From: Candidatus Omnitrophota bacterium
GTDB lineage: Bacteria; Omnitrophota; Gorgyraeia; Aquiviventales; Aquiviventaceae
Direction: 5' to 3'
Length of the DNA: 64,000 nucleotides
Assembly: GCA_016193175.1 (NCBI GenBank)
Contig: JACPSR010000052.1
Coordinates: 11,226-75,225, forward strand
Shown: one piece after another, positions 40,396 to 64,000 of the stretch
Layout: each line of letters opens with the position of its first letter
Numbering within the stretch: position 1 is the first letter of the stretch
Translations under genes and position numbers: made by a program
Notes under the pieces: generated by a model
Told to the model about the DNA's origin: nothing
Databases searched by the model: none
Seen by the model: the letters and a program-made list of their open reading frames with translations, nothing else

Positions 40396-40447
40396 GGCTT
40401 GCTGCCTGCTACGGTTACCGCGCCACGACCATCCTAATATTAAACAC

Positions 40448-40476
40448 ATAATAATAGATTTCAAAAACATTGTCAA
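40448..40476 (-). promoter_or_regulatory. Sigma70-like promoter TTGACA-N17-TATTAT, in the only AT-rich island of the window. It would drive the 530-aa gene and the downstream megaprotein gene.
   Basis: Minus strand reads ...aattgcTTGACAatgtttttgaaatctatTATTATgtgtttaatattaggatgg. The -35 sits at 40476..40471 and the -10 at 40453..40448 with a 17-nt spacer. It lies between the stop of the 5401-aa gene (40504) and the ATG at 40395, in an otherwise >60% GC window. Confidence 0.5.
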
Positions 40477-40486
40477 GCAATTTTTT

Positions 40487-40502
40487 ATTAGTGGCTTAGT
40501 GG
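40487..40502 (-). repeat. Tandem direct 8-mer GCCACTAA x2 immediately 3' of the 5401-aa gene stop.
   Basis: + strand ttagtggc ttagtggc at 40487-40502. The TAA stop at 40504-40506 is the start of the first copy on the minus strand. No clear hairpin terminator accompanies it. Confidence 0.6.
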
Positions 40503-40503
40503 C

Positions 40504-52500: not shown

Positions 52501-55500
52501 CTCAATGGTCTGTCCAATTCGCCGCTGGAGCGTGGGAGGATCATGGTGAAAGCGCTTTTCATCTCCTTTTGCGCTCCGGAAGATGAGGAAGATGAACGGC
52601 CCGATCCGGTACAAAGCCGGTAGACCTGGTCCGTAGGCGCGCTCGAACCCGACGCGGTGACCGTTGATCTCAAACTCGTAATCCGTCGTTAAGGCCCCGA
52701 CGGGTGCAAAGGCATGGATCGACGATTCAGCCAAGTCCACGGCGTCATCCTCGCTGAGCCATTGCATGGCCCTCTGACCGGCCTCACCGTCATGGCGCTC
52801 CTCCGGGGCCGGGGGAACGCCGGGTGGCTGATGCACCATCGTGAACGCGGCGGTGAGGGCGGCGCCGACGGCGAGGCTGAGTCGCGCGAAGCCAGCGCGG
52901 CTGAGGAGGGGTGCAGCCTCGGCGCCGGCGAGATACGCGACCGCGGCGAGGAGGCCGGCGACGAGCCATGCCGCGCTGAGGAGGAGCAGGAGCTTGGGGA
53001 GCTTCTCCCTGAACCGGACCAGGGTTGCCTCGATCCCTGCAAAATAGCTGGGCAGGGCTTTCCCTAATTGGCTTCGATACACTTCCGCCTCTCGGCGGAT
53101 CTGCTCCGCAAGCGCGGGCTGGGTGGGTTCCGCTTGTTGGGCGAGCTGCTCGAATTGTTCCAGGGTGATGAGGATGGGGTCGCGCGTAAGTGTTCGTGGC
53201 GCTTGCCCCGCCGTCAGTTCTTGGGGAGAAGCGGGCGGCGCGCGGCCGGCCGCCCGGCGCGCGAACCAGGCGCTGAGTTGTTGAGCTCCGCGCGCTACTC
53301 GCCGGAGGACCCACAGGCCGGCAGCAACCCCGCCGAGCGCCAGGGCGTATGGCAGCAGATGAAGGGCCCGGGTCAGGGAGAACACCATGACAGGACCAAT
53401 GATTGCCGTCTCGGGCGGGAGGGTCTCCACAACCCACGTGGCCAGCGTCAGCCCGAGGGTCATCGCGAGCCCGAGCGTGCCAACCCGCAGCCAGCGCCGG
53501 CCTCTCGCGCCAGGCCCCGCGCTCGTTCCGAGGAGCGCCAGGGCCACGAGGGCGGCAAGTCCGCTCAGAACGGGGAGGGCGGCGCCAAGGCTGGCCCAAT
53601 CAACCGACGGGCCTCGAGCGAGGTCCACCACCCCCTCCGCGGAGGTGCCGGCCAGGAGCGCGCCGAGGCCCACGATCCAGGCCGCCAGCCGGCCGGAACC
53701 AGAACCCCGTACCCTTCTTCTCACGACGGTTTCAACCCGCTTCCCCTGAGCCTGAGACGCTGACTCCAGGAGGGTTTCCGCTTGCTTGACGTGCTCCACG
53801 ATGTCCTTCAGGATCTGCGTGGCCTGACGATAGTCGGTTTCCTGTTTCGGCCACTGCTCCACGCGGTGATCGATGCGATTCTGCACCGTCTCTACGTCAT
53901 GCCTGATGGCCTGAAGGGTAGCCACGAGACGTTTCTGCAAATCCTTCAGCGGCCTCTGCTCGCCCAAGGAGCGACGGATACGCTCCAGCAGACGCGCAGT
54001 CGTCTGCGTGGCCTTGCCTAACCGCTCTTCCAGGATCCGCGGCGATCCGATTTCATTCTTCGCAACCTTGAGGGGGTAGGTGCGCACGTCCTGCCAGTCT
54101 TGGAGCAACTGTCGCCAGGCGATGACAGTGTCTTCGTCAAAAACCCTCATGGATGCGGCGAAAAACACAGTCGTCTCGAGGGGACTCCATGTCGGCGTTA
54201 ACCCGGCCCACAGCGCGGCAAGCTGGGCCGCTGCCGCCAGCGCCAGGACGAGCCAGGCGATCGTGATGAGCGGGATCACGCCGTCCTCACGGGGCGAGGC
54301 ATCCTCGGCTGGCTCCTCACGTACCGGCCTGGCGAGATCGATGAGGTCGGCGTAGATCCCCTCCAGGTAGCTTCGGAATCCTTGGAGTCTCTTGGTCGCA
54401 TCTTCGGGTGTGACGAGTGACGGGTCCGCTCGCGGGTCAAGGATCAAGGCCCGAGTCACCCCCTCAAACTCGCGCGCCAGCTCGTCAAGGTGAGGGCTGG
54501 GGGCGCCGGCCTTCGACCACAAGGACAGAAAACCTTCCCTAATCTGCCGAATCAACGTGTGCGCTTCGCCGAACTCCCGACGCTGACGCTCCGTCTGCTC
54601 CACAAGCGTCTGCAGCACCAGACGGCTTCGTTGTAGCCTAAGGAGGAGGATGAATCGCCTCAGATTCGGACGGCTGAAGAGATCGGTGGTACTCGTCAGC
54701 GCCTCCTCGGTCAGCGTCCACGCTTGCTCGACATGAGCGAGCCGATCCCGCTGGTCCATCTCCTGAAGATTGCCATCCAGAAGGCGCACGGCCTCATCGA
54801 CATCCACGGCGGCCGTCTCAACGATCAGATGCACCGGATACATCCCTGACGCGCGGTTGCCATCCTGTGGCCCGGGCGGCTCGGTGGGCGTGAGATCCTT
54901 CGCCCTCAACGCGGCTCGGATCGCCCTGATCATCGCCCATGGCCGATCACTAAAGCCAAGTCGAACAAGCTCAGCCTCATCTGAGGGTATTTCGCGGATT
55001 GAGAGCAGCGGGGGGGTCTTGGCCAAAAAGGTCTCTTTGATCCACTGATCAGTCTCGGGTCTCTTTGAAAAGCGCACATTCACGATGAAGTCCGGATCTT
55101 CTTGGAACCGGATCCTGCGAGCGGCCAAGGCGCGTGTCAAGTCCTTGAACTGCGCCAAGTGCGACCAGACCGAGCGATCAGGGGACTCGGCTTGGATCAG
55201 CCGGAAGACCTCGAAATCGGTCTTGGAGAGCAACTCGAAGATCGTGTGACCTAGCAGGATGATCTCCTGATCGGTGAGGATCGGGCGCTGGCCGCCATGT
55301 GCAGAAAAGAGTGCGTTCTTAACGAAGCCATCGCGACGCCATCCTGGAAATGTCCGGTTCTCAAGAAAGTTCGGATTCTCCCGAAGCCTGATGCCGTACG
55401 TGGCCAGGGTGTGCTTCAGGTCGTAGAACCGCTTGCGATACCACCAGCCTGGAGCGACTGGGAAGTGCTCGATGAGCAGGCGGAATACCTCCAAGTCAGT

Positions 55501-56709
55501 GATGGCTTCGAGAGCTGCAACTGTGCGGACCCCTGCAGCTTCCAAGATCTCTAAGATCTCCCGCACGTCTTTCCGTTGAATCATCAGGTCGCGAAGGAGA
55601 AGGCTCGGAGCGATGAGGCGCTCCGTCTCAAGCCTCGGTAACACTTTGGCGAGTGCCTGTTGCTCAATTTGCCGGACCCGCTCGCGAGTCAGCCTGAGAC
55701 GAGCGCCGATCTGTTCAAGCGTCTGCGAGCTCAGGCGCGATTCCAAAATCGTCCGTTCACGCTCGGAGAGATCCATAAAGATTGTGGGACCAGTGCGCGC
55801 AAACTCCCGTTGAACCTGTTGCAGCAGTGGTGAAAGCCAGGCCCTTCTCGCTCGCCGCAGAACCGTGGCAAGGCCAGCGACACCGAGCGCCCCCACGAGC
55901 GGTCCAAGCCATCCCCCAAGCGCCGCGAGTTCTGCAGCCAAACCGCCACTAGGGATCTCCACCGCCGACCAGCCGAGGGCCGGGACGCCGGCCAGGGCGA
56001 GCCCGAGGAAGAGGCCGAGCTTCTGACCGCGGCGCAGGGAACGATCCGTTCTATCGGGAGTCGACGGAGCCGGTTTCGGAATCCATCCCTCGATGATCAA
56101 CAGGCCCGCGGCGAGGATCGCAGCGACCCCGCTGACGACGAGATAGGACGTCAACGGAGACGAAACCGCCTTCGTGGTCCGGAAGAGCGAGAGGAACGGC
56201 GCGAGCACGACGGCATTGAAGAGGAACAGGAAGAACACCCCGGCAGTGAATTGCGAGATGTCCACCCTCCAACCCCGCGACCTCGCCCACCAGAGGCCGA
56301 GGGACGCCAAGGCCCAGATCCCGACAATCCCAGCCGCTGTCATCCACAACGCCGCAGACAGGGCATCTGTAAGCCCCAGGAAGGGGATGAGCGCGGGGAG
56401 AACGGCAGAGCCATTCGTTTCGGTTCGCCGACGCGCATCCGTGGCGCGCTCCTGCTTGGGCCTGCGTGCCCAGACGACCATGTCATCGGATCCGTGCACG
56501 AGCTCGAAGGCCTCCGTCCATCCCTCCTGCTGACGCAGCGCCTCGCTGTCCTTCCGCCCGGCGAAGAGCACCCCTCCTACTACTCCGCCATGTTCGGACA
56601 TCAGGGCGGCGCTGAGCGTTTTCAACTGCTCCTCAGTCAGTGGCGCGGTGACCCCTTCGATCAGGATCAGGTCGGCTGACCGAAGACCTCCCAGGGTGGC
56701 ATCGCTCAT
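40504..56709 (-). CDS. Giant multi-pass membrane protein of ~5401 aa. It carries a sigma70 region-4 HTH, two alpha-CTD-like HhH repeats, a class-I SAM-MTase-like segment, an NTase-fold core, a TPR array and a PEP-synthase/RPH-like ATP-grasp plus phosphohistidine swivel module.
   Basis: Track ORF 40504..56826 (5440 aa). The likely true start is Met40 (ATG 56709..56707), whose ATG overlaps the TGA of the upstream gene (ATGA at 56706-56709). The first 39 track codons overlap the upstream gene in another frame. Domain motifs are read directly from the track translation. Confidence 0.85.
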   Translation of the reverse strand: MSDATLGGLRSADLILIEGVTAPLTEEQLKTLSAALMSEHGGVVGGVLFAGRKDSEALRQQEGWTEAFELVHGSDDMVVWARRPKQERATDARRRTETNGSAVLPALIPFLGLTDALSAALWMTAAGIVGIWALASLGLWWARSRGWRVDISQFTAGVFFLFLFNAVVLAPFLSLFRTTKAVSSPLTSYLVVSGVAAILAAGLLIIEGWIPKPAPSTPDRTDRSLRRGQKLGLFLGLALAGVPALGWSAVEIPSGGLAAELAALGGWLGPLVGALGVAGLATVLRRARRAWLSPLLQQVQREFARTGPTIFMDLSERERTILESRLSSQTLEQIGARLRLTRERVRQIEQQALAKVLPRLETERLIAPSLLLRDLMIQRKDVREILEILEAAGVRTVAALEAITDLEVFRLLIEHFPVAPGWWYRKRFYDLKHTLATYGIRLRENPNFLENRTFPGWRRDGFVKNALFSAHGGQRPILTDQEIILLGHTIFELLSKTDFEVFRLIQAESPDRSVWSHLAQFKDLTRALAARRIRFQEDPDFIVNVRFSKRPETDQWIKETFLAKTPPLLSIREIPSDEAELVRLGFSDRPWAMIRAIRAALRAKDLTPTEPPGPQDGNRASGMYPVHLIVETAAVDVDEAVRLLDGNLQEMDQRDRLAHVEQAWTLTEEALTSTTDLFSRPNLRRFILLLRLQRSRLVLQTLVEQTERQRREFGEAHTLIRQIREGFLSLWSKAGAPSPHLDELAREFEGVTRALILDPRADPSLVTPEDATKRLQGFRSYLEGIYADLIDLARPVREEPAEDASPREDGVIPLITIAWLVLALAAAAQLAALWAGLTPTWSPLETTVFFAASMRVFDEDTVIAWRQLLQDWQDVRTYPLKVAKNEIGSPRILEERLGKATQTTARLLERIRRSLGEQRPLKDLQKRLVATLQAIRHDVETVQNRIDHRVEQWPKQETDYRQATQILKDIVEHVKQAETLLESASQAQGKRVETVVRRRVRGSGSGRLAAWIVGLGALLAGTSAEGVVDLARGPSVDWASLGAALPVLSGLAALVALALLGTSAGPGARGRRWLRVGTLGLAMTLGLTLATWVVETLPPETAIIGPVMVFSLTRALHLLPYALALGGVAAGLWVLRRVARGAQQLSAWFARRAAGRAPPASPQELTAGQAPRTLTRDPILITLEQFEQLAQQAEPTQPALAEQIRREAEVYRSQLGKALPSYFAGIEATLVRFREKLPKLLLLLSAAWLVAGLLAAVAYLAGAEAAPLLSRAGFARLSLAVGAALTAAFTMVHQPPGVPPAPEERHDGEAGQRAMQWLSEDDAVDLAESSIHAFAPVGALTTDYEFEINGHRVGFERAYGPGLPALYRIGPFIFLIFRSAKGDEKRFHHDPPTLQRRIGQTIEQFRARLAAHLKDRYPSTAGNFLFVAPSYATDHPFNDYTVGTFASMLGYADYFPGATVVDAGAESGIHSRGGLRLGARHAVLIDKKRPVLELARALLLADGWREGAGQGGQFTIRHADLTDPIDLAALAEPSSPLEQATSALVSIGPWNNYRRANEMAVDFLSRRPKIQLLINSGYFLSQFGQVNHRHVRAFHRIRGMLEDRGFHVQPYEYAIGRSTSGILIATRTPGAAPHPAIENGKTPPAAAPPASNPAADTDAQPPAPGEVSQRASPPHDRLGDAAKIESVTPILGSLKVPRAPQFLSEEESEQYAHAAQALSSSLREGAIGPRHLAWALAQLPEVKRYGIMAELGQHLGSIPYAQRLVIGDVLFGVPTFQASIRPPPGGATLKANGVTVRLFGGRLRTVPYLATARVDGVPLEARVLALFPDDQELRVLEAQPLSLPGGHVPGALAYVHFYLRGKTLVIGAIQSDVYRALRQEGTTKSRYRDWQKEMRLGLEAYARGVGVEQIVSPTSEQIQQRWPPDVQSDVESPGIARALADIVYDQDMPGLGYHQEDLPEPMAWEGGLTLTRAWVKRLDPLVHDPLLAQFQQVLKEEAQGSAAISPSRNLEPTPREIATEGLDGISVNEPPNPDAAKVPSEESPAVKQTAQVTAILDQANAEQPYQPKDKHLLDLPPASLDSAIRHTRVNVVDLIDEAIREVWPAIKRQLVKTPEDFQPDRIIIEIGGSVAYLRDREGKIYWPGIGHVNGEPELDIVLYLPDEWSDDFFSEFGVIDLNRRQRSQTLTSAIAKKFELVGVHLHVDVCLRPMPVRKLLYPLFPEFPYHPDKWYFATPKALAALQAAVSANASEHRHMVLQKYFQLFTEAKEFPDFADPSFTVKAVRRLVQLAQMRGDYEEAQQLFDLIVKVVDHKVTAEDLRNPLKQSLTRADPAFNESDIEFLVERYETQRRLGPAAPGNMGNGGARVNRTERSDRAHRRGGHRNVIGDEELELEAPWNAYDYASGGTLVPDSERRRLAVIDDWKLLDQLQQRIKTLKDRSERALKPGEVNQDEAGKLRAEIEQLGAEVNGLPQELQGQAVEGDAAPKESAKIPPPPITPAPPPAPPEPPRSSQPAEPTPQAATRPGDSPPLKVGIDPTVATGDSKAQQQRKAEAHKQFQQGEGHEQAGRLEEALRLNRYEEVEESAREALVLAPDPSMIRAELLYKLADALVELGRPDEGLRLFDETIEALEALAKRTKRPAELREIQRFAAIVGITKAQTYYSLDRHNEARASIQELRRYSAILAERQPSVLAYALMLQGHLAYAEGDLQGARRLYERAHGADPHPTIDDALDVVKGRVAEQANNVEEAITRFRRVLAHGCSFLGPTLPLRDTESDVPILVAALKQAGKARVRELEKRGVSVVRGRQLLIAYHPPLGEALRALGRVYAKQPEPERQLLAFLVLEAVMRLKEVAGPSSSTIQQLFEAIRSRINPETASNRLLAAEASLRAFHLEQAGQIEAARQEYARALDVNAEDIVSRFAAGRVAYLRGRYDEAVQWLTTARDTAKRMRPGDRRLLMDISRVLGVSLLELDRPRALESLEALTEALTLLQSIRTEPLDWAAYTAFLNDPPVQEKYLLTQMAAAQLQHALDTEEPQAYEKVLELGRRARSVYGVEDRQRKEGMDRAVLRSEALALWGLKRYEPATNKMEDVVRKIEAELRAANEGLKRLAREAGSAANAPHEAELTRRRRELEQAQARALVTRGSIRLFSGQSGQLELGVSDLAQDQTKGWFTPAGTVAIKRYLAEALLRLGDLDGARREIGEALSLAQSIRPVVGWTYVDLLFLSGRLHLKKAEWNEAAQTLHQALIETLHGYGAIAQEPAPPTLAELLQMTRGLQTLTPRIVNYLVEGGEGLAVSLIKRSSSDEAELTAAVELIGWLDALDLSAEQRAQLDAVRPSLEAKLARTREQAEEDRRVHAQLVMEQRTSALGADGLARELAEALPEILKRSELDAELRQQAEAVVHQAEETGRVTPPEGWATGRAWALALVLQAETPAPKLLVERLAKAAAESHAKLSLQTIESMTRKAEAAELKGNRLEALATMISDGAVRTHLDEAVKTKSRIDEAMNAAIDELIRSLQAAQPQAAPPKEPRGRGRRTGRRGPPEEKEHYLPPELRQSPLERMFGHQDRRFHSQGPGRVETGSSKPLQPPTVMLDDAATLSVDEIGEKAKALAELRQLGIPTPDALVLTVQAAAHVRSYQQQLQEGLRQLEQRTGTKLGDAEAPLLLAVRSSADQAYPGLLTSVLFVGMTRDVLEGLKRSRGEPVAFRTYAAWLRSWAVGVLKMPAQSFDRALNKPSSPEEVANAFERIIAESGFRIPEDPHDQLVAAIEAVVQSGRADAVKNFRVIHGQTGPAPVAVILSPMLNTLDEDSGVGMFSTHDSQTGEPGLFGSFRVTASGDELVQGRSLVPVQELRSRFPAVFEQLSALRERIVQARHHVPQDIEFAFAHGRVLITQAQPQVLMPAALLPLIERQAREAGASTIDLIPTVLERLQYSSPPRKTMVGRFRDMDTAKRRVIVGDPSRLSGTDMVVGHLVFTRERALAAIRSGEPIIFVAQEGQQDLLKELLSANRLSGVILSEGVAPGTHTRQLLQYFDVPVVAFNQSYPTEIDEGALVRHVWEWGRGARVERRVPEGSLVAMDGAEKVVVAFIPEEWHALREMPAAPGFDLQALKDSVTQAYGGTDYQTVLQAHDRSLSAALTADRTWRWLRTHRPQAVEEIVTAGRNTIAHGLSAHFLYELLLEKGSQLGKSARQVGLEIVEQAKDLQRLPELRSTPYRLLTRDFRPSLNPAWGKFVIQFWGKEWDFDSRSYRSYLTPAELETHQLPPLGQAYQRFLEPIRQEAEQAKRQVQRFVEYLRASGAEVPSLRLFAEWFDHTHEDAPNTFGAYAVGVEFLPDRLQEVVQRLLDFERAKPWQGDPRTPSGDGERDHGERDRHGDRFRGAWENLPWADHHHRSAGRRGGGGGWAVGTPAPEPSKPAPAQQIELVSDPLRKVIPAGIKHLIRGTTSGRRQMTPERFLVSAEKALQRFADLPAKTKTNEVAAGLRNRLRYAARRFRTAAPYGRVQSALKQTNASVLLDDVSGNEEKATQTATSLGWLLEIFRARKAVRLRAQLHPVEGQLEALMAPYFPGVIARPATFRSAESYQETIDSLVEKFTLGGSTVQAAPILGGFLVWLLAPDLTGALAFLVGLGTTIMIAVVGGNGGTSDSPEDTHDKLPRIKFTAGSMGGGPEPITSVLVVGALAERAVERLRVDGKVDIHVSELRDGHAMAHVENLNSEDPTGSVEIDQQPVLQLHRLPDALAGLKPNVEGVSVLIKRDVHRSSSFLLNSTQPRAKKQSAVKALPLALAVAVGMILLAAVPVEAAVRHAALSLAPDWVTLSLLMVAVGLAWPWWLRRHRWGRSSSLRDGETPQLVAPVDQVNLEDWDRALDQFDDPQGSFAVVERQAFLAAARMMLQEAARRTTASSAKELQDMVLAWHDKLALMTQQRARGVYWGDIEVFFERLSRAWQRQGPSIQLAARAYRGLVKGQWLVDHNHRIAFLLMAYLLLRAGLVPPTPTPRVLYALSRLGGQPSRRVARWLRSEQPSIGERWVQDVHARLIQGRIEESRELLLELIQDLGSRSDKRGSLLVDGVSRLLQTYPELHRWIRSTLIEFLRDQKGGYRIRGWIEILLRELLAKELDARIQFVVGALADRPPETKAALAQELKAWVTDKRTFRRFLADLLSGRQFFRGRFRDMRYSSLPQQERWRALDLNLIQLLIRRGDLKPSPWLKAGGALAWAFVFLWGSQGAYGQSNLMGFDRYFQEGARLMKRTALASRDLVRGVRMLYRSEGWRVEIHGESHTFGELKGSVYAGAAWQLGHWTGDPENAVKFLALLGNGYDIERAIRKIWKDTPPTIPPSGGSFPGAPRGTLPTAKFHGPGNALMDRPQAEPSWPRPPAGRTIEDVEPGIKSNHVAERFN
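42230..42850 (-). other. C-terminal TM helix clusters of the 5401-aa protein.
   Basis: AAPILGGFLVWLLAPDLTGALAFLVGLGTTIMIAVVGGNGG (~42700-42850) and ALPLALAVAVGMILLAAVPVEAAVRHAALSLAPDWVTLSLLMVAVGLAWPWWL (~42230-42400). Confidence 0.65.
44400..44950 (-). other. PEP-utilizing-enzyme mobile (phosphohistidine swivel) domain.
   Basis: DMVVGHLVFTRERALAAIRSGEPIIFVAQEGQQDLLKELLSANRLSGVILSEGVAPGTHTRQLLQYFDVPVVAF (verified 44581-44640) parallels G.VV...........ILV...T.P.......A.GIVT..GG.TSHAAIVARE.GIP.VVG. The catalytic-His position is retained (GTHTRQ). No PEP/pyruvate TIM-barrel domain follows. Confidence 0.65.
45000..45970 (-). other. PPDK_N-type ATP-grasp domain (PEP synthase / pyruvate-phosphate dikinase / rifampin-phosphotransferase N-terminal nucleotide-binding domain).
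   Basis: KPLQPPTVMLDDAATLSVDEIGEKAKALAELRQLGIPTPDALVLTVQA (~45900-45960), LLLAVRSSADQAYPGLLTSVLFVG (compare VAVRSSATAED...SFAGQ), GVGMFSTHDSQTGEPGLFGSF, PQDIEFAFAHGRVLITQAQP (verified 45010-45070; compare PQDIEWAI..G.LYILQSRP). Confidence 0.7.
46700..49150 (-). other. Long TPR-like repeat array (about 800 aa) preceded by a Pro-rich linker.
   Basis: Linker IPPPPITPAPPPAPPEPPRSSQPAEPTPQ (~49150-49300), then repeated patterns such as LAYALMLQGHLAYAEGDLQGARRLYERA, FAAGRVAYLRGRYDEAVQWLTTA and IKRYLAEALLRLGDLDGARREIGEALSLA. Confidence 0.6.
49900..50500 (-). other. Nucleotidyltransferase-fold (Pol-beta-like NTase) core.
   Basis: Verified at 50225-50340: IEIGGSVAYLRDREGKIYWPGIGHVNGEPELDIVLYLPDE, which fits hG[GS]x9-13[DE]h[DE]h. 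A third acidic residue may lie in VHLHVDV downstream. Confidence 0.5.
51900..52480 (-). other. Class-I SAM-dependent methyltransferase-like segment (PrmA/HemK-like motif I), tentative.
   Basis: YADYFPGATVVDAGAESGIHSRGGLRLGARHAVLIDKKRPVLELARALLLADGW...FTIRHADLTD parallels G..VLDVGCGSGILAIAA.KLGA..V.GVDID..AV..A..NA..NG. Motif I was verified at 52291-52330. Confidence 0.4.
55050..55620 (-). other. Two ~90-aa repeats resembling the RNA-polymerase alpha-CTD helix-hairpin-helix fold (tentative).
   Basis: ILEILEAAGVRTVAALEAITDLEVFRLLIEHFPVAPGWWYRKRFYDLKHTLATYGIRLRENPNF and LGHTIFELLSKTDFEVFRLIQAESPDRSVWSHLAQFKDLTRALAARRIRFQEDPDF. Compare alpha-CTD LKRAGIHTVGDLV..TE.ELL...NLGKKSL.EIK..L...GL. Confidence 0.3.
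55620..55775 (-). other. Sigma-70 region 4-type HTH domain.
   Basis: Verified by reverse complement of 55681-55780: FMDLSERERTILESRLSSQTLEQIGARLRLTRERVRQIEQQALAKVLPRL, matching the region-4 signature L.ERE..IL..R.....TLEEIG..LG.SRERVRQIE..AL.KLR. Confidence 0.7.
55790..56380 (-). other. N-terminal TM helix cluster (about 6 helices) of the 5401-aa protein.
   Basis: Track translation: AVLPALIPFLGLTDALSAALWMTAAGIVGIWALASLGLWW...FTAGVFFLFLFNAVVLAPFLSLF...LVVSGVAAILAAGLLIIEGW...LGLFLGLALAGVPALGW...LGPLVGALGVAGLATVL. Confidence 0.7.
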
Positions 56710-59700
56710 GAGTTCTGTGGTCCTTTGTCCGCCAGCCCCACGTAGTGCACGGCGATGTTGCGCGCGCCCCCTTGGGTCAGGCGTTGCAAGGTCGGCAGGG
56801 TCGAGGGCTCGGATGGGTTGGACCACAACGTCTGCACCCGAGCAGCCGCAGGCACTCCAAGGCTCCAGATGTTCAGGAGTTTGGACGCCCTGTTCGCCTC
56901 CAAGGCGCGTTCGACCGCCGGCTGCTTCAACAACGCCTCAAAGGACATCGCAGGTGGCCGGTCAGCTTGAGCCTCCGGCTGCGGCAGCGGCAGGATCCCT
57001 TGACGAGGATTGACCGGCGCCCTTCCTCTTCTTCTTGTTCTTGAGCGGAACGACGACACCGAGAGCCCCACGAGCCCAGCCCCGTACTCGGGATGCGTCT
57101 TCACCCAGGCCCAGGCCGGCCAGTCGGCCATGAGCGAGTCCACAAAACCCGTCGGGATGAGCCAGGCCGCCGCCGCAATCCCGAGCGCGAGGCCAGCGTA
57201 GACGAGGATGCCGAGTTGCAAGAAGCGAGGGTTCCCTTTTAGGGTGTCGGTCGGTTTCTCAGGACGACGGGCACTGGCCTCGTCTTGGATCACTCGCCAA
57301 TCGGGCCGGGAAGCGGCGAAGAACCCATTGAGAAGGGAGGCGGGCCACAGGAGATCCGCGTGCTCGGGGAGCAAGAGCGCAAAGACGGCAGCGGCAAGGG
57401 CCAGTGAGAGGCTCGTGATGATCCCAGCCAGGGCGATGCGAGCGGCGGCACCTCTATCAGCCTGATGCCTCACGCCCAGGCCTGCGCTGAAGAGGCCTCC
57501 GCGGATGCGGCCAAATGTCGGAGCAGCCTTCAACCGCTTGGCAACGAACCCGTGAGCCGACTCGTGGATCAGGAACGAGAAGAGGTAGATCAGGCTCAGC
57601 GGCAACAACCGGACGAGGTTGACGCCCGGCTCAACCCCCAGAAGCGACGGCAGCATCCCTCCCAGCCCCACGACCAGCGCCGCCACCCCGAGGTTCACCC
57701 ACGGCAGGGCCGATGAGGATGAGGCTGATGGGGGCGTCGGTGCCGCCTCATCCACCCCCTCCCTCGCCACGCCGCTGGTGCCCGCTGATGGGCCGATCGA
57801 GCCTGTGGGCCCGCGAGGTGTTTGGGTGTAAGGAGCAATGAGGGACGGTTCTATGTTCCTGGCGAAGAACGGCGAAAAATCCTCGATGTTAGCCCACAGC
57901 CAGATCGCGCCGCGCCACGCCGCGAGACTCCCGACGAGGGCAAGCCCACCGAATGCCCATCCATAGGCGCCGGTGATCGCGAGCCACGCCAGCACCGGGC
58001 TGATGGAGAACCCGTACACGAGCCAGTGGATTGCTGCCTCGCGGCCGGTGCGGCGGCCCCGGCTCGCCCAGTGGATCGCCGCATGGCCAAGCTCATGGCC
58101 AAGGAGGAAGGCCTGCACGTAGGCGCGGTAGCGACGGAGTTGAGGATGCGCATGGATCGCGCGATCGTCGGGATTGTAGTGGAGGAGAGCCGGGATATTG
58201 CCTTCGCTCAAGCCAGGCAGCAGAGCCCCTCGGGTGGATCGGACAATCGAAAACCACAGGAGCCGCTTGAGCCAACCCTGAGGAACATCTCCCGGCCCTG
58301 CACGCTCGGGATGAATCGTGGCAATCATCTGCTGATCAACGACCATCCGGCTCCCGAGCACTGCGAGCCATGCGGAAATTAAGACGCCGAGCCACGAAAG
58401 GAGAAAGAGCCGCCCCGCGATCGCCGGATCGCCTCCTGTGAACCAACTGACCCCGCTGGCTGCCATGAGAAGCCAGAGCAGCCCGCTGATCACCCCCGCA
58501 CTCGCCAGCAGCCCCCCGCCCCGCACCGGCGCTGCCTTGCCTTTGGGTGTTGAGCTTGCCTCCGATGATGGCGGGGCTGTCCCTCCTGCGGCATGCCGCT
58601 TTTCGAGCAAGCGCACGAGCGCTTCGGCATGATCAGCGAGCGTCACGAGCGTTGCCACGTTGCGCTGCATTTCCGGAATGCGCGTGTGGAACGACCCAAG
58701 CTCAAGGCGGTAGTCATCGGCGGCCTGACGAAGGAGGTCCCCCGCCTTTTCGGCAATCTCTGGTAGCGGCCGGTGCTGAGCCAAGCCTGCCTGAATCATC
58801 TGCCCCACTTGCTGAACTCGACGTAACCCTGCCGCGGCAAACGCTCGATCCTCCTCGAGTTGGCGAACTTGCGCTTCAAACCGGGAAGGCTCAGCGGTCT
58901 CCGTGACCGCCCACACGCCCCGGCCGGACCAAAGCTTGAAGGCGCGCAGGAACCGCGCCCGGGCATCCGAAGGCAGCCCGGCCAGCGCCTCTTGGGTGAC
59001 CAGACGTTTCCTCGGCACGACAGGGACCGGAAACATCCGTTGGAGCTCGGCGTCGCGGAGGCCGCCGGGTCCTGACACGCCCAGCTCGAACACGGGCCGG
59101 CCTACGTCGTCCAGCCCAATGCTGATCGCCTTGCCCGCGCTTTTGCCCATTATCCGTTTCCATATGGTCGGCTCGAATCGCCGCAAGACCAACCGCAGCG
59201 GCTTGTCCGGAGCATTCAGATACACCTTGTCGGCTGATGCAGGATTGAGCGGATCCGTCGGCACAAACGTCACCAGCAGCGCCTGCCCATTCGCGTGATT
59301 GATGAGGTACAGCACCCGGCCCTGCTCGGAGACGGCGTAGCTGATCATTGGGGCTGGCGCTCGTTGCGCGAGGCGCACGACGATCTGGCTGGAGGGACCC
59401 TGGCCTTCCGCGGCCAGCGCGCCGAGCACGACGCTCGTGTGGGGCGTCATGAGCATAAGCCGCTCCGGCAGATGCTGCATCAAGCGCCGCGCTTCTTCTT
59501 GCAAGGCGATCCTGGAGGCAACGTCTAATTCATCGGAAGGACGACGGGCACGGGCGTCTGACCCAACCCAGACTTTGAGATACCTCTGAAGCTCAGGCGA
59601 TACCCCGGACGCAGCGTCCTCGATCCATTCCATGAGCCGGAATCTCATATAGAAGGGGCGCGGCTGAGACCGACCCATCGCCCGCGCTTGATCCCCCGGC

Positions 59701-62700
59701 GTGGCGCCTTCGAGCGCCAAGGCCAACAGTTCGAGTTCCCCGAGCGCATCGTCATAGGTCAGCGTGTCGCTGCGACCTTCAACCCATTGCGTGAAGCCCT
59801 GAACCTCATGCCGCTGATCGATCCATCGCATCAACTCGCCGGCGAGCGCCTCGACCCGCGCCAGCTCAGCACCGCTCAGCACCAAGCCGTGCTGCGCCGC
59901 GGCCTGGATGCGCTGGCGGATCTCCACAAGGCGGGCTCGCCAGACCTGCTGCAACTGGCGATAGAGGTCCGCATCCTGAAAGAGTCGGGTGAGCACAGAA
60001 TCGCCTCGTTTGAGACGGAGGGCGTGAGCCATGGCATAGAGATTTCCGTCGCTGCGTTCCAAGAGTTCGGCAAGGCGTGCCTTTTCTCCGGGATCCATTG
60101 CTGGCGGCGCTTCGGCAGCCTTCGGTGGCCGTGTCTCCAGCACAAGCTGTCCCCGCGCGAACTCATCCAGCGCCCGGTCGAGCGCGCCTCCGGATCCCAG
60201 CGTGTCGAGATCAAACCACCTCGGCCGCGCTCCGGGGCGAGCCAGACAGAATCGATCGGATGTCTCTGCACGCTTGGGGTCGGCGGGGAGGAAGGTGATC
60301 AGCAACTGCTCCCCGGTCCAGTCGTTGACGAGGAGGGCGAGGCGGCCTTGGCCCGAAACGGCGTAGCGGATCTCGGCGCCGCGCGCGGGATCTGATCTCA
60401 AGCGAAAGACCAGTTGGATCGCTGGCGCGCCAAGCACCACATCGCTCTCTGGAGTGAGAGGTTGAAGTGGCTCCGAAGCGCGCGCTCGGACGAGCGTAGA
60501 CGCCTCTTCTTGCAGGGCGATCCGGCTGGCCATGTCCAACTGATCATCGGACCGACGTCTAACTGTCAACCACTCCCTCAAGTAGTCCGTGAGCGGCCGG
60601 GATAACTCGGAGCCGCGGACGCTGACCGTAGCCTGTAAATCAGAGAGTAGCCCGGCCGCAGAAGCCGCAGGTCGACCCATGGTCCTGGCCTGGGCTGACA
60701 GGCTGGCTCCTTCGAGCGCCAGGGCAAGGAGCTCGAGCTGCGCCAGCGTCCGAGGCGAGGGAAGCCGACCGGCGCCTCCCTCGAGCCACTGCCGGAGCTC
60801 CTCCACGTCAGGAAGCCCCTTGAGCCATTGCATGAGTTCTTCGACGAGCGATTCCGTCAGGTAGCCGCCGTGGCGGAGGAAAAGACTGCGTTCCGCCGCG
60901 CGCCGGATTCGCTGCTCGACTGCATTCAGTCTCCTGCGCCAGACGCTGCGCAACTGCCGCCGAAGCCTGACGTCCCCTAAGAGCCGCTTGAGGAGCCGCC
61001 GGGAGTTCATGCGCCGTTCTTCGGCCATCTGGTAGAGATCGCCATCGGTCTGCTTCATGAGTTCCTTCAGACGGGCTCGTTCGGCTGGGTGCATGGCTCG
61101 GACGGCCTTTTGGGGTCGAGCGGGACGAGGACGTCGAGCCTGAGGTTCGCGAAGACTCGGTGGTGGGGCAGGCCGCTCAGAGGCCGGCCTCGCCTGCGCC
61201 GGCTGCTCTTCAGGACCACGCACGGCTGGTTGAGGTTTCCGCCACCACCATTGAGCTCTGGATGGCTGACGCAAGCGCCCTAATGCCCTCTGTGCAATTG
61301 CCCCCACGTCTTGCCTGGAAACCCCCCAGGCGGCGCCGATGGCTTCAAAGCTCCTCTCGTCCTGGCTGTATCGAGCTCGGATAACCCGCTCCTCCCTTGT
61401 AGACAGCGTTGCAAGCACGCGATCTTTTATGGACCTGAGGAGCCCCTGCTCGGCTCGTCGCTCTCCTAACGCTTCCTCGGGATCAGCGACCTTCGCTTCG
61501 ATGCGCGCGGTGGCTGGGACGGCTGACATGATCCTGAGAGCCTGCTCAAACCGTTCGCTGAGCGAGGGGTCCTTCCATCTCATCCACTCGCGCAACCCGG
61601 CGCGGTCCGTGGGGCTCAAAGCCTTGAGGCCAGGATCCCCGTAGGACGGCCATTGGCGCAGCAGCTCCAACGCCAAGCTCAGATTTGTTGGAGCCTCCAG
61701 CCCAAGTGCCTCGGCTATGTGGAAAACGAGGTCCCATTCAATTCGGTTCCACATCGTACCTAACGGTACCCTGATCCCTGGCCGCCCCTGTAGCCAGCTC
61801 ACCACAGCAACATGCATCTCAGCCCAGAACTCCTCCTCATCGATGGCTGACGCGGGCCCGCCAAACAATTCGATTAGGAAGCTCAGGTCATCAAACAGCC
61901 GCTGGGCAGAGCGATGCACGTCCTCAGGACGTAGCGCAATGCCATAAGTCCTGGGCCGCCTGTTCGTCAACGCCAGGTAGACCTTCAGCCACTGGCCGAA
62001 CCCGCCTGGGAGGCGGGCCATCGCGTCGAGGAGCGCTTCGCGCATCCACTTGGCGTGCGGCCTGCGCTGGCTCATCGCCTCCTCCAAGGCCGGTCCTTCC
62101 CGCGTGGCAAGATTGCTGATCTCTTCGCCGAGGCGGCGCAGGCGCTTGGCGGCGCCTGGGCTCTCTCGATAGACCACCTGCGCCAGCGCGGTCACTAGTA
62201 CCTGTAAGTCGCGGAGTCGTCTAACGTAGTGGTCGCTGCGCGTCGTCGCCTGCAATGACGCGATGTGGCGCTGCATCTCAGATACCAACCAGGGGACGCG
62301 CGCGCGCGGAAGGCGTTGACCGCTCACCATCCATACCGAGACGCCCGCCGCCAGCAAGAGGAGGCCGCCGACCGTCACCCAGGCTGGGATTCCCGCAGTC
62401 CCGCCGGGGAGCGGCGCCATCGCGAGCGAGCCCAAGCCGAAGACAACGATGCTGAGGTGCATCAGCCGTTGACTTATGCTTGGGGTCAGACCCCAAGCAC
62501 GAAGTTCCCCGATTGGGGTCTGACCCCTACGCAGACGCCAGGCTATCCCCACCACCACCCCGGCCAGACCGAGGAGGCCGCCGCCGAGGAGCCAGGCCGC
62601 CAAGCCGCCGTGCGTCCCGAGCCAGGAGCCGAGCCCGCCCCACGAGGGCCCGTGCGCCGCGGCCCAGGTGGCGAGGGCCGCCAGTCCTGCGCTCGCGCCG

Positions 62701-63998
62701 ACCGTCTCCAGGGCGAGGAACCCGCGCGGGCCGGTTGGCTTGACACGTCCGTCGACGGGTGCTACACTTGCGGCAGTGGAGGCACGTAATGGGAAAAGTC
62801 TATCCAACGTTGCTACGGTGCTATGCGCGTCCTGAAGGCGATCATTACCTCGCCTTCTGCCTCGAGGTAGGCCTGTGCGATCGGGGCGAGACGCTGGACG
62901 CTGCGAAGGCGTCGCTTGAGGAAGATCTCGTCGGGTATTTAGAATCCTTAACCCCTGAGAATCTCGCCGACCTGTTCCCCCGCCCTGCTTCGTGGGAGGT
63001 GTATCTGGACTACTACCGGGTGTGGTGCCTGGTAGCCCTCGCGCGACGTTTCCGTCAGCTCGCCCACCACTGGCTTGTCTTCGTCGAGCCCCTCGTGCTA
63101 ACGCCTCGTCTGGCGCATGGGGCGTTTCGTCCTTAGCCAGCGGGACCTTGTCCGCGTCCTGCACTCCCACGGCTTCAGGCAGATCTCCCAACGCGGCTCC
63201 CACCAATACTGGGAGCGGCCTGGCTACAAAGTGACGGTTGACGTCAAGTATCCGGAGTACAGCGGGTGGTTGCTCCGCATGATGATTGAGCAATCCGGTC
63301 TGCCGAAGTCCGTGTTTCGTCCCACCAGCCACTAAGAGCGCCACCGTCACCGCACCGATCCCGCCCCACCGTCGCACGAAGGTCACCCCCACCCAGACCG
63401 CTAGCCCTAGCAGAAGGCCGCCGAACGTCACCCACGAGGAGATGCCGAAGGTTGTGAGCCATGCCGCGAGCGCGGAAATCCCGATCCCGACGCCCGCCGC
63501 GAACGGGACAACAGTGAGGGGCGTGTTGGGGCTCGGGCCGCTGGACGAACCAACTGAGCCATTCGATTCCGCTGGTTCTGGGAAGAAGGTGCGGACTTCA
63601 GATTCGTAGTAGTCCTGCAAACGCCGGAAGAGCGCGCGGGCAGTGCGATCTTCAGGGGAGTCCGTAGGAGTTGGCTCACCGGTAAAGGTGCGCGAATCCC
63701 AGATGATACTAAGGTTTTCTTGTGCGCGAGAGAGGCCCACGTTGAGGCGACGCAAATCCTTCACAAAGCCGATTCGCCGATCCGCGTTACTGCGCACGAA
63801 GTCAAAGATGATCGCCCGGTTCTCCCCACCCTGGTAGCTATCGATTGTGGTCACGAATGGCCAGCGAGTGGCCTGTGGGTAGGCTTCCTGGAGCAGCTGG
63901 CGAATGAGCTCGACTTGGTCGTTGTATGGCGTGATGACGGTAATCTGGTCTAACGGAATGCTCCGAGCCTCATAGAGCCTGATGAGTTGTAGAACTTG
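56706..63998 (-). CDS. Giant protein, 5'-truncated (N-terminus lies beyond the window end; at least 2430 codons in window). It has an SF1 Upf1/AAA_12-like helicase domain at the N-terminal side, then multi-pass TM segments, a sigma70-r4-like HTH, two tandem ~330-aa repeats and two HExxH M50/site-2-protease-like motifs.
   Basis: Track ORF 56706..63854 begins at a GTG within helicase motif V. Manual translation of 63855..63998 in the same frame is stop-free (...SMRLGIPLDQITVITPYNDQVELIRQLLQEAYPQATRWPFVTTIDSYQGGENRAIIFDFVRSNADRRIGFVKDLRRLNVGLSRAQENLSII), so the gene continues off the window. TGA stop at 56706-56708. Confidence 0.85.
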   Translation of the reverse strand, partial: QVLQLIRLYEARSIPLDQITVITPYNDQVELIRQLLQEAYPQATRWPFVTTIDSYQGGENRAIIFDFVRSNADRRIGFVKDLRRLNVGLSRAQENLSIIWDSRTFTGEPTPTDSPEDRTARALFRRLQDYYESEVRTFFPEPAESNGSVGSSSGPSPNTPLTVVPFAAGVGIGISALAAWLTTFGISSWVTFGGLLLGLAVWVGVTFVRRWGGIGAVTVALLVAGGTKHGLRQTGLLNHHAEQPPAVLRILDVNRHFVARPLPVLVGAALGDLPEAVGVQDADKVPLAKDETPHAPDEALARGARRRQASGGRADGNVARGLPGTTPGSSPDTPPTKQGGGTGRRDSQGLRILNTRRDLPQATPSQRPASRPDRTGLPRGRRRGNDRLQDAHSTVATLDRLFPLRASTAASVAPVDGRVKPTGPRGFLALETVGASAGLAALATWAAAHGPSWGGLGSWLGTHGGLAAWLLGGGLLGLAGVVVGIAWRLRRGQTPIGELRAWGLTPSISQRLMHLSIVVFGLGSLAMAPLPGGTAGIPAWVTVGGLLLLAAGVSVWMVSGQRLPRARVPWLVSEMQRHIASLQATTRSDHYVRRLRDLQVLVTALAQVVYRESPGAAKRLRRLGEEISNLATREGPALEEAMSQRRPHAKWMREALLDAMARLPGGFGQWLKVYLALTNRRPRTYGIALRPEDVHRSAQRLFDDLSFLIELFGGPASAIDEEEFWAEMHVAVVSWLQGRPGIRVPLGTMWNRIEWDLVFHIAEALGLEAPTNLSLALELLRQWPSYGDPGLKALSPTDRAGLREWMRWKDPSLSERFEQALRIMSAVPATARIEAKVADPEEALGERRAEQGLLRSIKDRVLATLSTREERVIRARYSQDERSFEAIGAAWGVSRQDVGAIAQRALGRLRQPSRAQWWWRKPQPAVRGPEEQPAQARPASERPAPPPSLREPQARRPRPARPQKAVRAMHPAERARLKELMKQTDGDLYQMAEERRMNSRRLLKRLLGDVRLRRQLRSVWRRRLNAVEQRIRRAAERSLFLRHGGYLTESLVEELMQWLKGLPDVEELRQWLEGGAGRLPSPRTLAQLELLALALEGASLSAQARTMGRPAASAAGLLSDLQATVSVRGSELSRPLTDYLREWLTVRRRSDDQLDMASRIALQEEASTLVRARASEPLQPLTPESDVVLGAPAIQLVFRLRSDPARGAEIRYAVSGQGRLALLVNDWTGEQLLITFLPADPKRAETSDRFCLARPGARPRWFDLDTLGSGGALDRALDEFARGQLVLETRPPKAAEAPPAMDPGEKARLAELLERSDGNLYAMAHALRLKRGDSVLTRLFQDADLYRQLQQVWRARLVEIRQRIQAAAQHGLVLSGAELARVEALAGELMRWIDQRHEVQGFTQWVEGRSDTLTYDDALGELELLALALEGATPGDQARAMGRSQPRPFYMRFRLMEWIEDAASGVSPELQRYLKVWVGSDARARRPSDELDVASRIALQEEARRLMQHLPERLMLMTPHTSVVLGALAAEGQGPSSQIVVRLAQRAPAPMISYAVSEQGRVLYLINHANGQALLVTFVPTDPLNPASADKVYLNAPDKPLRLVLRRFEPTIWKRIMGKSAGKAISIGLDDVGRPVFELGVSGPGGLRDAELQRMFPVPVVPRKRLVTQEALAGLPSDARARFLRAFKLWSGRGVWAVTETAEPSRFEAQVRQLEEDRAFAAAGLRRVQQVGQMIQAGLAQHRPLPEIAEKAGDLLRQAADDYRLELGSFHTRIPEMQRNVATLVTLADHAEALVRLLEKRHAAGGTAPPSSEASSTPKGKAAPVRGGGLLASAGVISGLLWLLMAASGVSWFTGGDPAIAGRLFLLSWLGVLISAWLAVLGSRMVVDQQMIATIHPERAGPGDVPQGWLKRLLWFSIVRSTRGALLPGLSEGNIPALLHYNPDDRAIHAHPQLRRYRAYVQAFLLGHELGHAAIHWASRGRRTGREAAIHWLVYGFSISPVLAWLAITGAYGWAFGGLALVGSLAAWRGAIWLWANIEDFSPFFARNIEPSLIAPYTQTPRGPTGSIGPSAGTSGVAREGVDEAAPTPPSASSSSALPWVNLGVAALVVGLGGMLPSLLGVEPGVNLVRLLPLSLIYLFSFLIHESAHGFVAKRLKAAPTFGRIRGGLFSAGLGVRHQADRGAAARIALAGIITSLSLALAAAVFALLLPEHADLLWPASLLNGFFAASRPDWRVIQDEASARRPEKPTDTLKGNPRFLQLGILVYAGLALGIAAAAWLIPTGFVDSLMADWPAWAWVKTHPEYGAGLVGLSVSSFRSRTRRRGRAPVNPRQGILPLPQPEAQADRPPAMSFEALLKQPAVERALEANRASKLLNIWSLGVPAAARVQTLWSNPSEPSTLPTLQRLTQGGARNIAVHYVGLADKGPQNS
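57400..58400 (-). other. Polytopic membrane region with two HExxH motifs resembling the M50 (site-2 protease/RseP/SpoIVFB) intramembrane metalloprotease core.
   Basis: QAFLLGHELGHAAIHWASRGRR (verified 58061-58110) and LFSFLIHESAHGFVAKRLKAAP (verified 57541-57590). Both sit inside predicted TM helices, as in M50 (LHELGHAL.A). Confidence 0.5.
59100..61100 (-). repeat. Two tandem, diverged ~330-aa (~990-nt) protein repeats.
   Basis: Unit A starts MHPAERARLKELMKQTDGDLYQMAEERR (~61095). Unit B starts MDPGEKARLAELLERSDGNLYAMAHALR (~60105, verified). They share ...ELELLALALEGA..GDQARAMGR..., ...ELDVASRIALQEEA..L..., ...IRYAVSGQGRLALLVN.../...ISYAVSEQGRVLYLIN.... Confidence 0.75.
61290..61420 (-). 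other. Sigma-70 region 4-like HTH in the helicase-linked giant protein.
   Basis: Verified at 61330-61440: LATLSTREERVIRARYSQDERSFEAIGAAWGVSRQDVGAIAQRALGRLRQ. Confidence 0.55.
62300..63560 (-). other. TM helix clusters following the helicase domain.
   Basis: LTVVPFAAGVGIGISALAAWLTTFGISSWVTFGGLLLGLAVWVGVTFV...GIGAVTVALLVAGG (~63300-63520) and LAALATWAAAHGPSWGGLGSWLGTHGGLAAWLLGGGLLGLAGVVVGIAW...IVVFGLGSLAMAPL...VTVGGLLLLAAGVSVWMV (~62300-62750). Confidence 0.65.
63690..63998 (-). other. SF1 helicase C-terminal RecA-like domain (Upf1/DNA2/AAA_12 type), motifs IV-VI. The domain continues beyond the window end.
   Basis: ITVITPYNDQVELIRQLL (motif IV-like), VTTIDSYQGGENRAIIFDFVRSN (motif V; compare TVDSFQGREKDVIIFSCVRSN), IGFVKDLRRLNVGLSRAQENLSIIWD (motif VI; compare IGFL.D.RRLNVALTRAK..L.IVG). 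Confidence 0.8.
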
Positions 63999-64000
63999 TT

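Follow-up and report, generated by a model that had tools for sequence, protein, structure and literature searches.

The 64,000-nucleotide (nt) stretch of contig JACPSR010000052.1 analysed here (hereafter the window), from a Candidatus Omnitrophota bacterium, ends in a minus-strand open reading frame (ORF) at positions 63998 to 56706. This ORF is best explained as the C-terminal part, at least 2,430 codons long, of a giant mosaic membrane protein that starts with a helicase domain. A probability of about 0.55 is attached to this explanation as a whole, including translation through an antisense toxin-antitoxin (TA) cassette and the inferred mechanism; confidence in the architecture is high. 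Behind the helicase lies a lineage-specific tail composed of two transmembrane (TM) clusters, a sigma-70 region-4 helix-turn-helix (HTH), a 335-amino-acid (aa) stretch duplicated in tandem and a pair of TM modules that bear HExxH motifs. Two reports (West-Roberts et al., bioRxiv 10.1101/2023.11.21.568195; Nielsen & Lui, bioRxiv 10.64898/2026.06.07.730766) describe giant mosaic proteins with many TM helices as a hallmark of Omnitrophota. The giant ORF belongs to this known phenomenon; what is noteworthy is the nested antisense TA cassette, a fluid ORF boundary and a small conserved family of HExxH modules.

The open frame and its source assemblies

Direct translation of the minus-strand frame from 63998 to 56709 gives 2,430 sense codons without a stop, followed by TGA at 56706-56708, which bears out the single frame running off the window edge described in the first-pass annotation, a reading made from the sequence alone. 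The 5' end of the frame is still open where the window ends (63998). The same sequence was recovered in three other assemblies, namely two Logan contigs and one contig of an NCBI metagenome-assembled genome (MAG). The two Logan contigs come from SRR12113433 and SRR12113426 and match window 61777-63867, cassette included, at 100% identity; the cassette-bearing sequence is therefore not an assembly error. The MAG contig JACPJH010000066.1 (L003; GCA_016187645.1, Candidatus Omnitrophica bacterium) is 99.6-99.9% identical to window 54832-64000 and reaches 498 nt past the window edge. Part of the missing upstream sequence is thus in view, with the giant frame open there too and the Walker B motif VIMDEASRE visible, but Walker A and AAA_11 lie beyond the contig end. 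Scanning genome and metagenome contigs for exact 60-mer matches turned up none that reaches farther upstream. The complete ORF is probably about 3.5-4 thousand amino acids (kaa) long. NCBI annotation calls the continuous ORF as protein P0014 (MAG: hypothetical protein HYW10_02020), with AAA_12 and Sigma70_r4 domains.

The window and L003, at ~99.8% identity, differ by indels of 86, 106 and 63 nt. The 86 nt at window 60712-60797, inside the first of the tandem repeats, are missing from L003, and the resulting frameshift truncates P0014. The 63 nt at window 56480-56542 are likewise missing from L003, in frame and close to the start of the next ORF. These two differences may be real alleles or assembly collapses; the 106-nt difference is considered below with the ORF junction.

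The helicase domain and its family

63699-63995, minus strand: AAA_12, C-terminal RecA-like domain of an Upf1/IGHMBP2/MkoA-like helicase of superfamily 1B (SF1B), aa 2-100, Pfam E 2.9e-26
Down to about 63581, minus strand: family-specific extension TFTG...DSPEDR...EVRTFFPE, conserved in P0001, P0003, P0007 and P0008

The identification of an SF1 Upf1/AAA_12-like helicase at the window edge holds. Besides Pfam, NCBIfam TIGR00376 (IGHMBP2) matches the helicase part (E 4e-26), and among defence models P0014 is closest to the Mokosh helicase MkoA (PADLOC, E 2e-43). Homologues exist only for the first ~140 aa. In these proteins (P0001-P0013, at 39-68% identity, with Candidatus Omnitrophota as the named source of one) the helicase is followed by tails that range in length from about 100 to about 2,400 aa and are unrelated in content, which includes epimerases, HATPase, DnaJ with glucanotransferase, and TM segments. 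A long, idiosyncratic tail is therefore the norm of the family. The fusion had been considered unusual, a view that is not sustained given that Omnitrophota are known for giant mosaic membrane proteins and that the helicase homologues are often long-tailed. The N-terminal halves of P0001, P0003 and P0008 contain four to six tandem units of ~90 aa, for example VIVKGVKLDRNG.L.LGG..GW..L...PNAPV.V.IEKGKVV.V.ILNE.G, and this unit probably also occurs in the N-terminus of the giant ORF beyond the window.

The tail: membrane clusters, sigma-type HTH and tandem repeats

63330-63524, minus strand: TM cluster A, 2-3 helices, aa 159-223
62316-62711, minus strand: TM cluster B, 3-4 helices, aa 430-561, with a helix unit similar to that of cluster A
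61266-61418, minus strand: sigma-70 region-4 HTH, aa 861-911
60075-61085, minus strand: repeat 1, helical at first, with a predicted sigma4/LuxR-like HTH, then a beta domain, aa 972-1308
59049-60083, minus strand: repeat 2, aa 1306-1650

TM segments were called by a Kyte-Doolittle scan. It finds about 12-13 hydrophobic segments, fewer than the about 15 helices initially counted, and these fall into four groups (aa 159-223, 464-561, 1827-2011 and 2094-2290). Clusters A and B, which lie on either side of the TA cassette, share similar helix units that correspond to a 40-nt repeat family, D1, with copies at 62345, 62558, 62675 and 63398. Within the coding frame of cluster B (aa ~491-506) there is a perfect 15-nt inverted repeat, GGGGTCAGACCCCAA / TTGGGGTCTGACCCC, with a 16-nt loop (62482-62527), which sits just upstream of ATG 62462, the start chosen by a gene caller.

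The HTH matches Pfam Sigma70_r4 at 32.3 bits against a cut-off of 24.1, in agreement with the first reading. The C-termini of the NCBIfam RpoD/SigB models also match it (E ~1e-8), in alignments that cover only the C-terminal part of these sigma models, and no Sigma70_r2 match was found at E <= 1 in the whole protein or in pieces. The domain is a sigma4-type HTH, and the protein is not a sigma factor. The two diverged tandem repeats noticed at first are equally clear: each is ~335 aa long, and in an alignment of 295 aa they are 42% identical (E 5e-46). One sigma4/LuxR-like HTH is predicted per repeat. Word-indexed searches for homologues of the tail returned the helicase relatives and the self-hit P0014 only.

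HExxH membrane modules

57870-58541, minus strand: HExxH module 1, two TM helices, a loop with HELGH (58083-58097) and two further TM helices, aa 1820-2043
57129-57725, minus strand: HExxH module 2, HESAH (57552-57566) after a TM helix, then N-x8-D-W with N2224 and D2233, aa 2092-2290

The two motifs, HELGH at aa 1968 and HESAH at aa 2145, compare with 0.04 HExxH expected from composition, and two or more occurred in 5 of 5,000 shuffles (0.1%). Both had been placed inside TM segments and regarded as typical of site-2 protease (S2P)/M50 cores. The placement is close for module 2, where HESAH (2145-2149) directly follows the TM helix at 2126-2144 and falls inside helix 37-67 of an AlphaFold2 (AF2) model of the module, but it fails for module 1, where HELGH is not part of any predicted TM helix and sits in a loop of ~100 aa that joins the helices at 1864-1882 and 1990-2008. 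The loop stretch preceding HELGH (aa 1916-1949, 58152-58251) is also locally hypervariable amid ~99.9% identical DNA: with the 86-nt and 106-nt indels set aside, the giant ORF of the window shows 19 differences from L003, of which 15 fall within these ~100 nt.

An exhaustive HMMER search of aa 1820-2430 against 1.84 billion representatives returned three matching proteins. P0015, a 328-aa fragment (E 4.5e-19), is the sole homologue of module 1 and carries the motif HEVWGH (HExxxH), in which His, Glu, Gly and His are kept and one residue is inserted. P0016, a 1,969-aa contig-bounded fragment from a JGI contig with a C-terminal GT87 domain, matches module 2, and P0017, a mosaic giant protein of 5,918 aa, contains two copies of it. 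A fifth copy, at a contig end of the Omnitrophota MAG nzgw323, was the only locus from a genome scan; a search with the module alignment and a scan for metagenome loci each gave 0 matches. All five copies of module 2, a rare module, come from giant proteins or an Omnitrophota MAG, and all five share W-x-N-x-G, IY-x2-SFL[IV]HExxH and N-x2-F-x2-S-x2-D-[WM], with HExxH and N-x8-D invariant.

The comparison with S2P/M50 cores was overstated. Pfam gives no Peptidase_M50 match on the whole protein, and the isolated module 2 piece matches Peptidase_M50 (PF02163) over profile positions 4-106 of 221 with E 3e-4 and 20.7 bits, below the gathering score of 27.2. Matches of module 2 to DUF3267 'putative zincin' (E 0.03) and to a daptide intramembrane metalloprotease model (E 0.018) are both weak, and all three matches involve the window copy only. 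Module 1 has no family match in the Pfam and NCBIfam scans. Compared with the NxxPxxxxDG motif, the second motif of module 2 has invariant Asn and Asp, lacks Pro and Gly and is spaced one residue longer. The AF2 model of module 2 has a confidence score (pLDDT) of 64, and neither Foldseek against the Protein Data Bank (PDB) nor a PDB sequence-profile search with module 2 found an S2P. The fold evidence is thus non-discriminating, and M50 membership is not established.

There is a sizeable chance, somewhat below even, that the HExxH motifs are not catalytic and that the modules are structural anchors or non-protease metal sites, the M50 likeness arising from hydrophobicity and a short motif. The sub-threshold M50 score, seen in one copy, the S2P-free structure searches, the position of the first motif outside TM helices with HExxxH in its sole homologue, and N-x8-D-W in place of the canonical NxxPxxxxDG all fit that explanation. 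The invariant HExxH and N-x8-D of module 2 suggest that this module plausibly works like an intramembrane zincin.

A nested antisense hicBA-type cassette

62739-63338, minus strand: bridge of the giant ORF, open yet non-coding-like in the giant frame, aa 221-420, G+C content at third codon positions (GC3) 0.40-0.56
62740-62768, plus strand: sigma-70-like promoter TTGACA-17-TACACT with TG extension, 10 of 12 consensus matches
62789-63136, plus strand: 115-aa gene in the HicB (antitoxin) position, overlapping hicA by 20 nt
63117-63335, plus strand: HicA-family toxin gene, 72 aa

The first-pass annotation missed that a hicBA-type cassette with its own promoter-like site occupies the plus strand opposite codons ~221-420 of the giant ORF. 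The 72-aa product is recognised by Pfam HicA_toxin (42 bits against a cut-off of 27, E 1e-10) and by PHROG 353 'toxin' (E 6e-9). The 115-aa product matches PHROG 12841, of function not known, with E 4.3e-8; it has no Pfam, NCBIfam or PADLOC match, HicB models do not recognise it, and searches for the HicB-like protein gave 0 matches in plasmids (tblastn) and 0 in PDB sequences. Its N-terminus may resemble E. coli HicB (BLASTP E 0.008), which is a lead only and not a test. The promoter-like site, of which 0.1 are expected in shuffles, lies 21 nt ahead of the ATG of the 115-aa gene, and gene callers on the Logan contigs called this gene.

The giant frame has a GC3 of 0.7-0.8 nearly throughout and drops to 0.40-0.46 at aa ~280-420, the sole deep dip in about 21,000 codons. 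Over the HicB-like gene, codon log-odds are positive in the plus frame and about -0.2 to -0.4 in the giant frame, values obtained with a flawed training set that included plus-strand shadow ORFs; across hicA each frame mirrors the other and their scores are similar. The bridge would translate into ~190 disordered-looking residues rich in R/A/G/L/P with a net charge of +12.

The cassette is flanked by a 15-nt direct repeat with one mismatch (62629-62643 and 63355-63369), which encodes WGGLG and WGGIG in the giant frame and whose copies are spaced 726 nt, or exactly 242 codons, apart. This repeat may be an insertion footprint or mere TM-unit similarity. As the only mobile-element candidate it was considered as a target-site duplication, and rejected since the enclosed sequence is still coding-like for the giant gene.

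One polypeptide or two expression units

Helicase and tail are, on balance, probably parts of one polypeptide. This was the original claim, and the unbroken frame sustains it, but ~190 bridge codons are antisense to an independent TA cassette and carry no coding signal. Four observations speak for one continuous ORF: the frame of the helicase runs on without a stop, no SD-like (Shine-Dalgarno-like) sequence precedes any start in 62800-62300, no in-frame ATG, GTG or TTG occurs from 62800 to 62603, and similar TM-helix units of family D1 stand on both sides of the cassette. Antisense stop statistics, trained on the minus-strand chain genes, give 0.035 and 0.0105 stops per codon in the relevant phases, and from these background frequencies the antisense bridge would be open by chance in ~1% of cases. 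When both TA proteins were synonymously recoded with genome codon usage, the bridge was open in 209 of 5,000 trials (4.2%). The correct phase with the downstream part adds a further factor of three, so that the joint chance is about 0.3-1.4%.

Several points weigh against this reading. The 1-4% chance estimate is post hoc, the composition of the bridge is non-coding in the giant frame and not shaped as protein, and gene callers on the short contigs preferred the genes of the plus strand, with M513 (62462) as the first residue of the tail. The tail also has almost no homologues in which conservation of the architecture could be seen.

The same facts can be read as two functionally separate expression units, a helicase gene and a TM/HTH/repeat/HExxH gene with hicBA between them, the frame being open and in phase by luck and any read-through product an unselected by-product. 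This arrangement, which we consider unlikely, would account for the collapse of GC3 and the negative codon log-odds in the bridge, for the family support of both plus-strand genes and their promoter-like site, and for the Logan-contig gene calls, which gave the plus-strand genes and a separate minus-strand gene from 62462; open antisense runs of this length also occur in the window (12 of at least 116 codons in that phase). However, ribosomes translating the helicase would have no termination point, a bridge both open and in frame has the low joint chance given above, there is no SD-like start after the cassette, where the first in-frame start codon lies within a TM helix, and long tails are normal in the helicase homologues. 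Far less probable still is a decaying locus, in which the TA insertion within the ORF and the 86-, 106- and 63-nt indels between ~99.8% identical assemblies mark a pseudogenising remnant without current function, since only three stops occur in about 21,000 same-strand codons, GC3 is uniformly high outside the cassette, and the 86-nt frameshift is confined to the fragmented MAG, in a repeat of the kind that assemblies often collapse.

The chain of giant ORFs and the ATGA junction

63998 to 56706, minus strand: giant helicase ORF, at least 2,430 aa, first visible member of the chain
56706-56709, minus strand: ATGA stop/start overlap, TGA 56706-56708 and ATG 56707-56709
56709 to 40507, minus strand: next ORF, 5,401 aa
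Ending at 38806, minus strand: ~550-aa ORF
~38798 to 3, minus strand: left-edge ORF, at least 12,930 aa

A direct frame scan also revealed a second feature that had gone unnoticed, namely that the entire 64-kb window is one minus-strand chain of co-directional giant ORFs, with only three stops in its ~21,000 codons. The stop of the giant helicase ORF does overlap the start of the next giant gene, as first described, with the junction reading ...AAC TCA TGA overlapping ATG AGC.... In L003, 106 extra nt (L003 7694-7799) are present at window 56716/56717-56720, the exact breakpoint being ambiguous; they abolish the stop and join both ORFs in frame (...ADKGQHTV...PVPTELMSDATLGG...), leaving 1,977 aa open to the contig end. 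The overlap in the window and the in-frame fusion in L003 therefore make the two ORFs one coding unit in practice. The 106-nt stretch includes a hairpin, GCTCCCC-TCG-GGGGAGC.

The 5,401-aa ORF has TM helices at its N-terminus, then its own Sigma70_r4 (E 5e-9) and, later, TPR repeats; paralogy with the giant helicase ORF was rejected, there being no BLASTP match at E < 1e-3. The junction that follows it (~40400-40506, minus strand) is an AT-rich intergenic region with a near-consensus promoter, TTGACA-17-TATTAT. The TTG listed as an ORF start at 40476 is the -35 hexamer of this promoter, and the true start is probably an ATG near 40432. At the left, the minus-strand frame 3-38909 is open for at least 12,969 codons and runs off the window edge, with an ATG start probably near 38798. 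Plus-strand ORFs of at least 200 aa at 1-38 kb were rejected as genes, having 0 Pfam matches, and are shadow ORFs.

Proposed mechanism and significance

The TA cassette may have landed in, or been absorbed by, the giant gene, its antisense strand happening to be, or being kept, stop-free and in frame, so that its translation would yield a disordered linker that the protein tolerates. The helicase and the HTHs would be cytoplasmic and form a membrane-tethered nucleic-acid-binding machine; both need the cytoplasm, and an even number of intervening TM helices would be compatible with this. Module 2 would be a divergent S2P/M50-type intramembrane zincin that cleaves either the giant polypeptide itself or a partner in the membrane and could, for instance, release HTH-bearing segments, while the ATGA overlap would couple translation to the 5,401-aa ORF. 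This scheme of a membrane-tethered helicase/HTH assembly with a zincin-like module cutting the chain or a partner is proposed tentatively, with odds well below even. Doubtful too, with odds well short of even, is the joint proposition that there is real translation through the antisense strand of an active hicBA and/or that module 2 represents a new, giant-protein-specific family of intramembrane zinc proteases. If true, the giant gene and hicBA would be a host/nested gene pair with ~190 antisense codons held free of stops by selection, one route of giant-gene growth would be the absorption of neighbouring DNA, and the module 2 family would cut giant polyproteins from inside the membrane.

The basic classification is unchanged by these features, and function is inferred. 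ORF boundaries in this chain are fluid, with a 106-nt indel turning an ATGA-coupled pair into one fused ORF, and a foreign TA cassette can lie in a giant ORF without closing its frame. The conserved small HExxH membrane module turns up again in giant proteins that have nothing else in common, and it is a candidate processing enzyme that could cut them.

Comparison with known systems

The cassette shares with type II HicAB/HicBA TA systems the HicA_toxin domain, a small overlapping partner gene, its own promoter-like site and the antitoxin-first order, which is known in S. pneumoniae (PMC6159526). It differs in that its partner gene product is unrecognised by HicB Pfam models and in its location inside, and antisense to, a giant ORF.

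Similarly, the helicase has the well-conserved AAA_12 domain and motifs V-VI of Upf1/IGHMBP2/MkoA-like SF1B helicases, with Walker B (DEAS) in the L003 extension, but carries a ~2,300-aa membrane tail. At their N-termini its homologues have a beta domain repeated in arrays. Mokosh partner genes were not seen.

S2P enzymes act on sigma-related substrates, as in the pairs RseP/RseA and SpoIVFB/pro-sigma-K, and the HExxH module beside a sigma-type domain recalls both pairs, as an analogy only. In common with the M50 family (RseP, SpoIVFB and the M. jannaschii S2P, PDB 3b4r), there is an HExxH ending a TM helix and a multi-helix membrane core, and a further conserved polar motif, whose Asn and Asp lie in a subsequent TM helix, may correspond to theirs. 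In contrast to these proteases, the Pfam match is sub-threshold, the second motif is N-x8-D-W, there is no PDZ or CBS domain, and the module is embedded in a giant polypeptide.

A further parallel is with the Omnitrophota giant proteins of the two reports (10.1101/2023.11.21.568195; 10.64898/2026.06.07.730766), in which a term search did not find a nested antisense TA cassette. The phylum is the same, and the giant ORFs are likewise co-directional and rich in TM helices, with a patchwork of domains; an ATPase/helicase-type domain, extreme divergence and protease-like domains proposed to cut the polyprotein are also shared. The differences are that the helicase is of SF1B AAA_11/AAA_12 type where theirs is SecA_DEAD, that the protease-like module is HExxH/M50-like where theirs is C39 or S8, and that the ORF is below the >10 kaa class, which its downstream neighbour (at least 12.9 kaa) reaches. 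The C39 and S8 peptidases proposed as processors in those proteins offer a parallel to the role suggested here for the zincin-like module.

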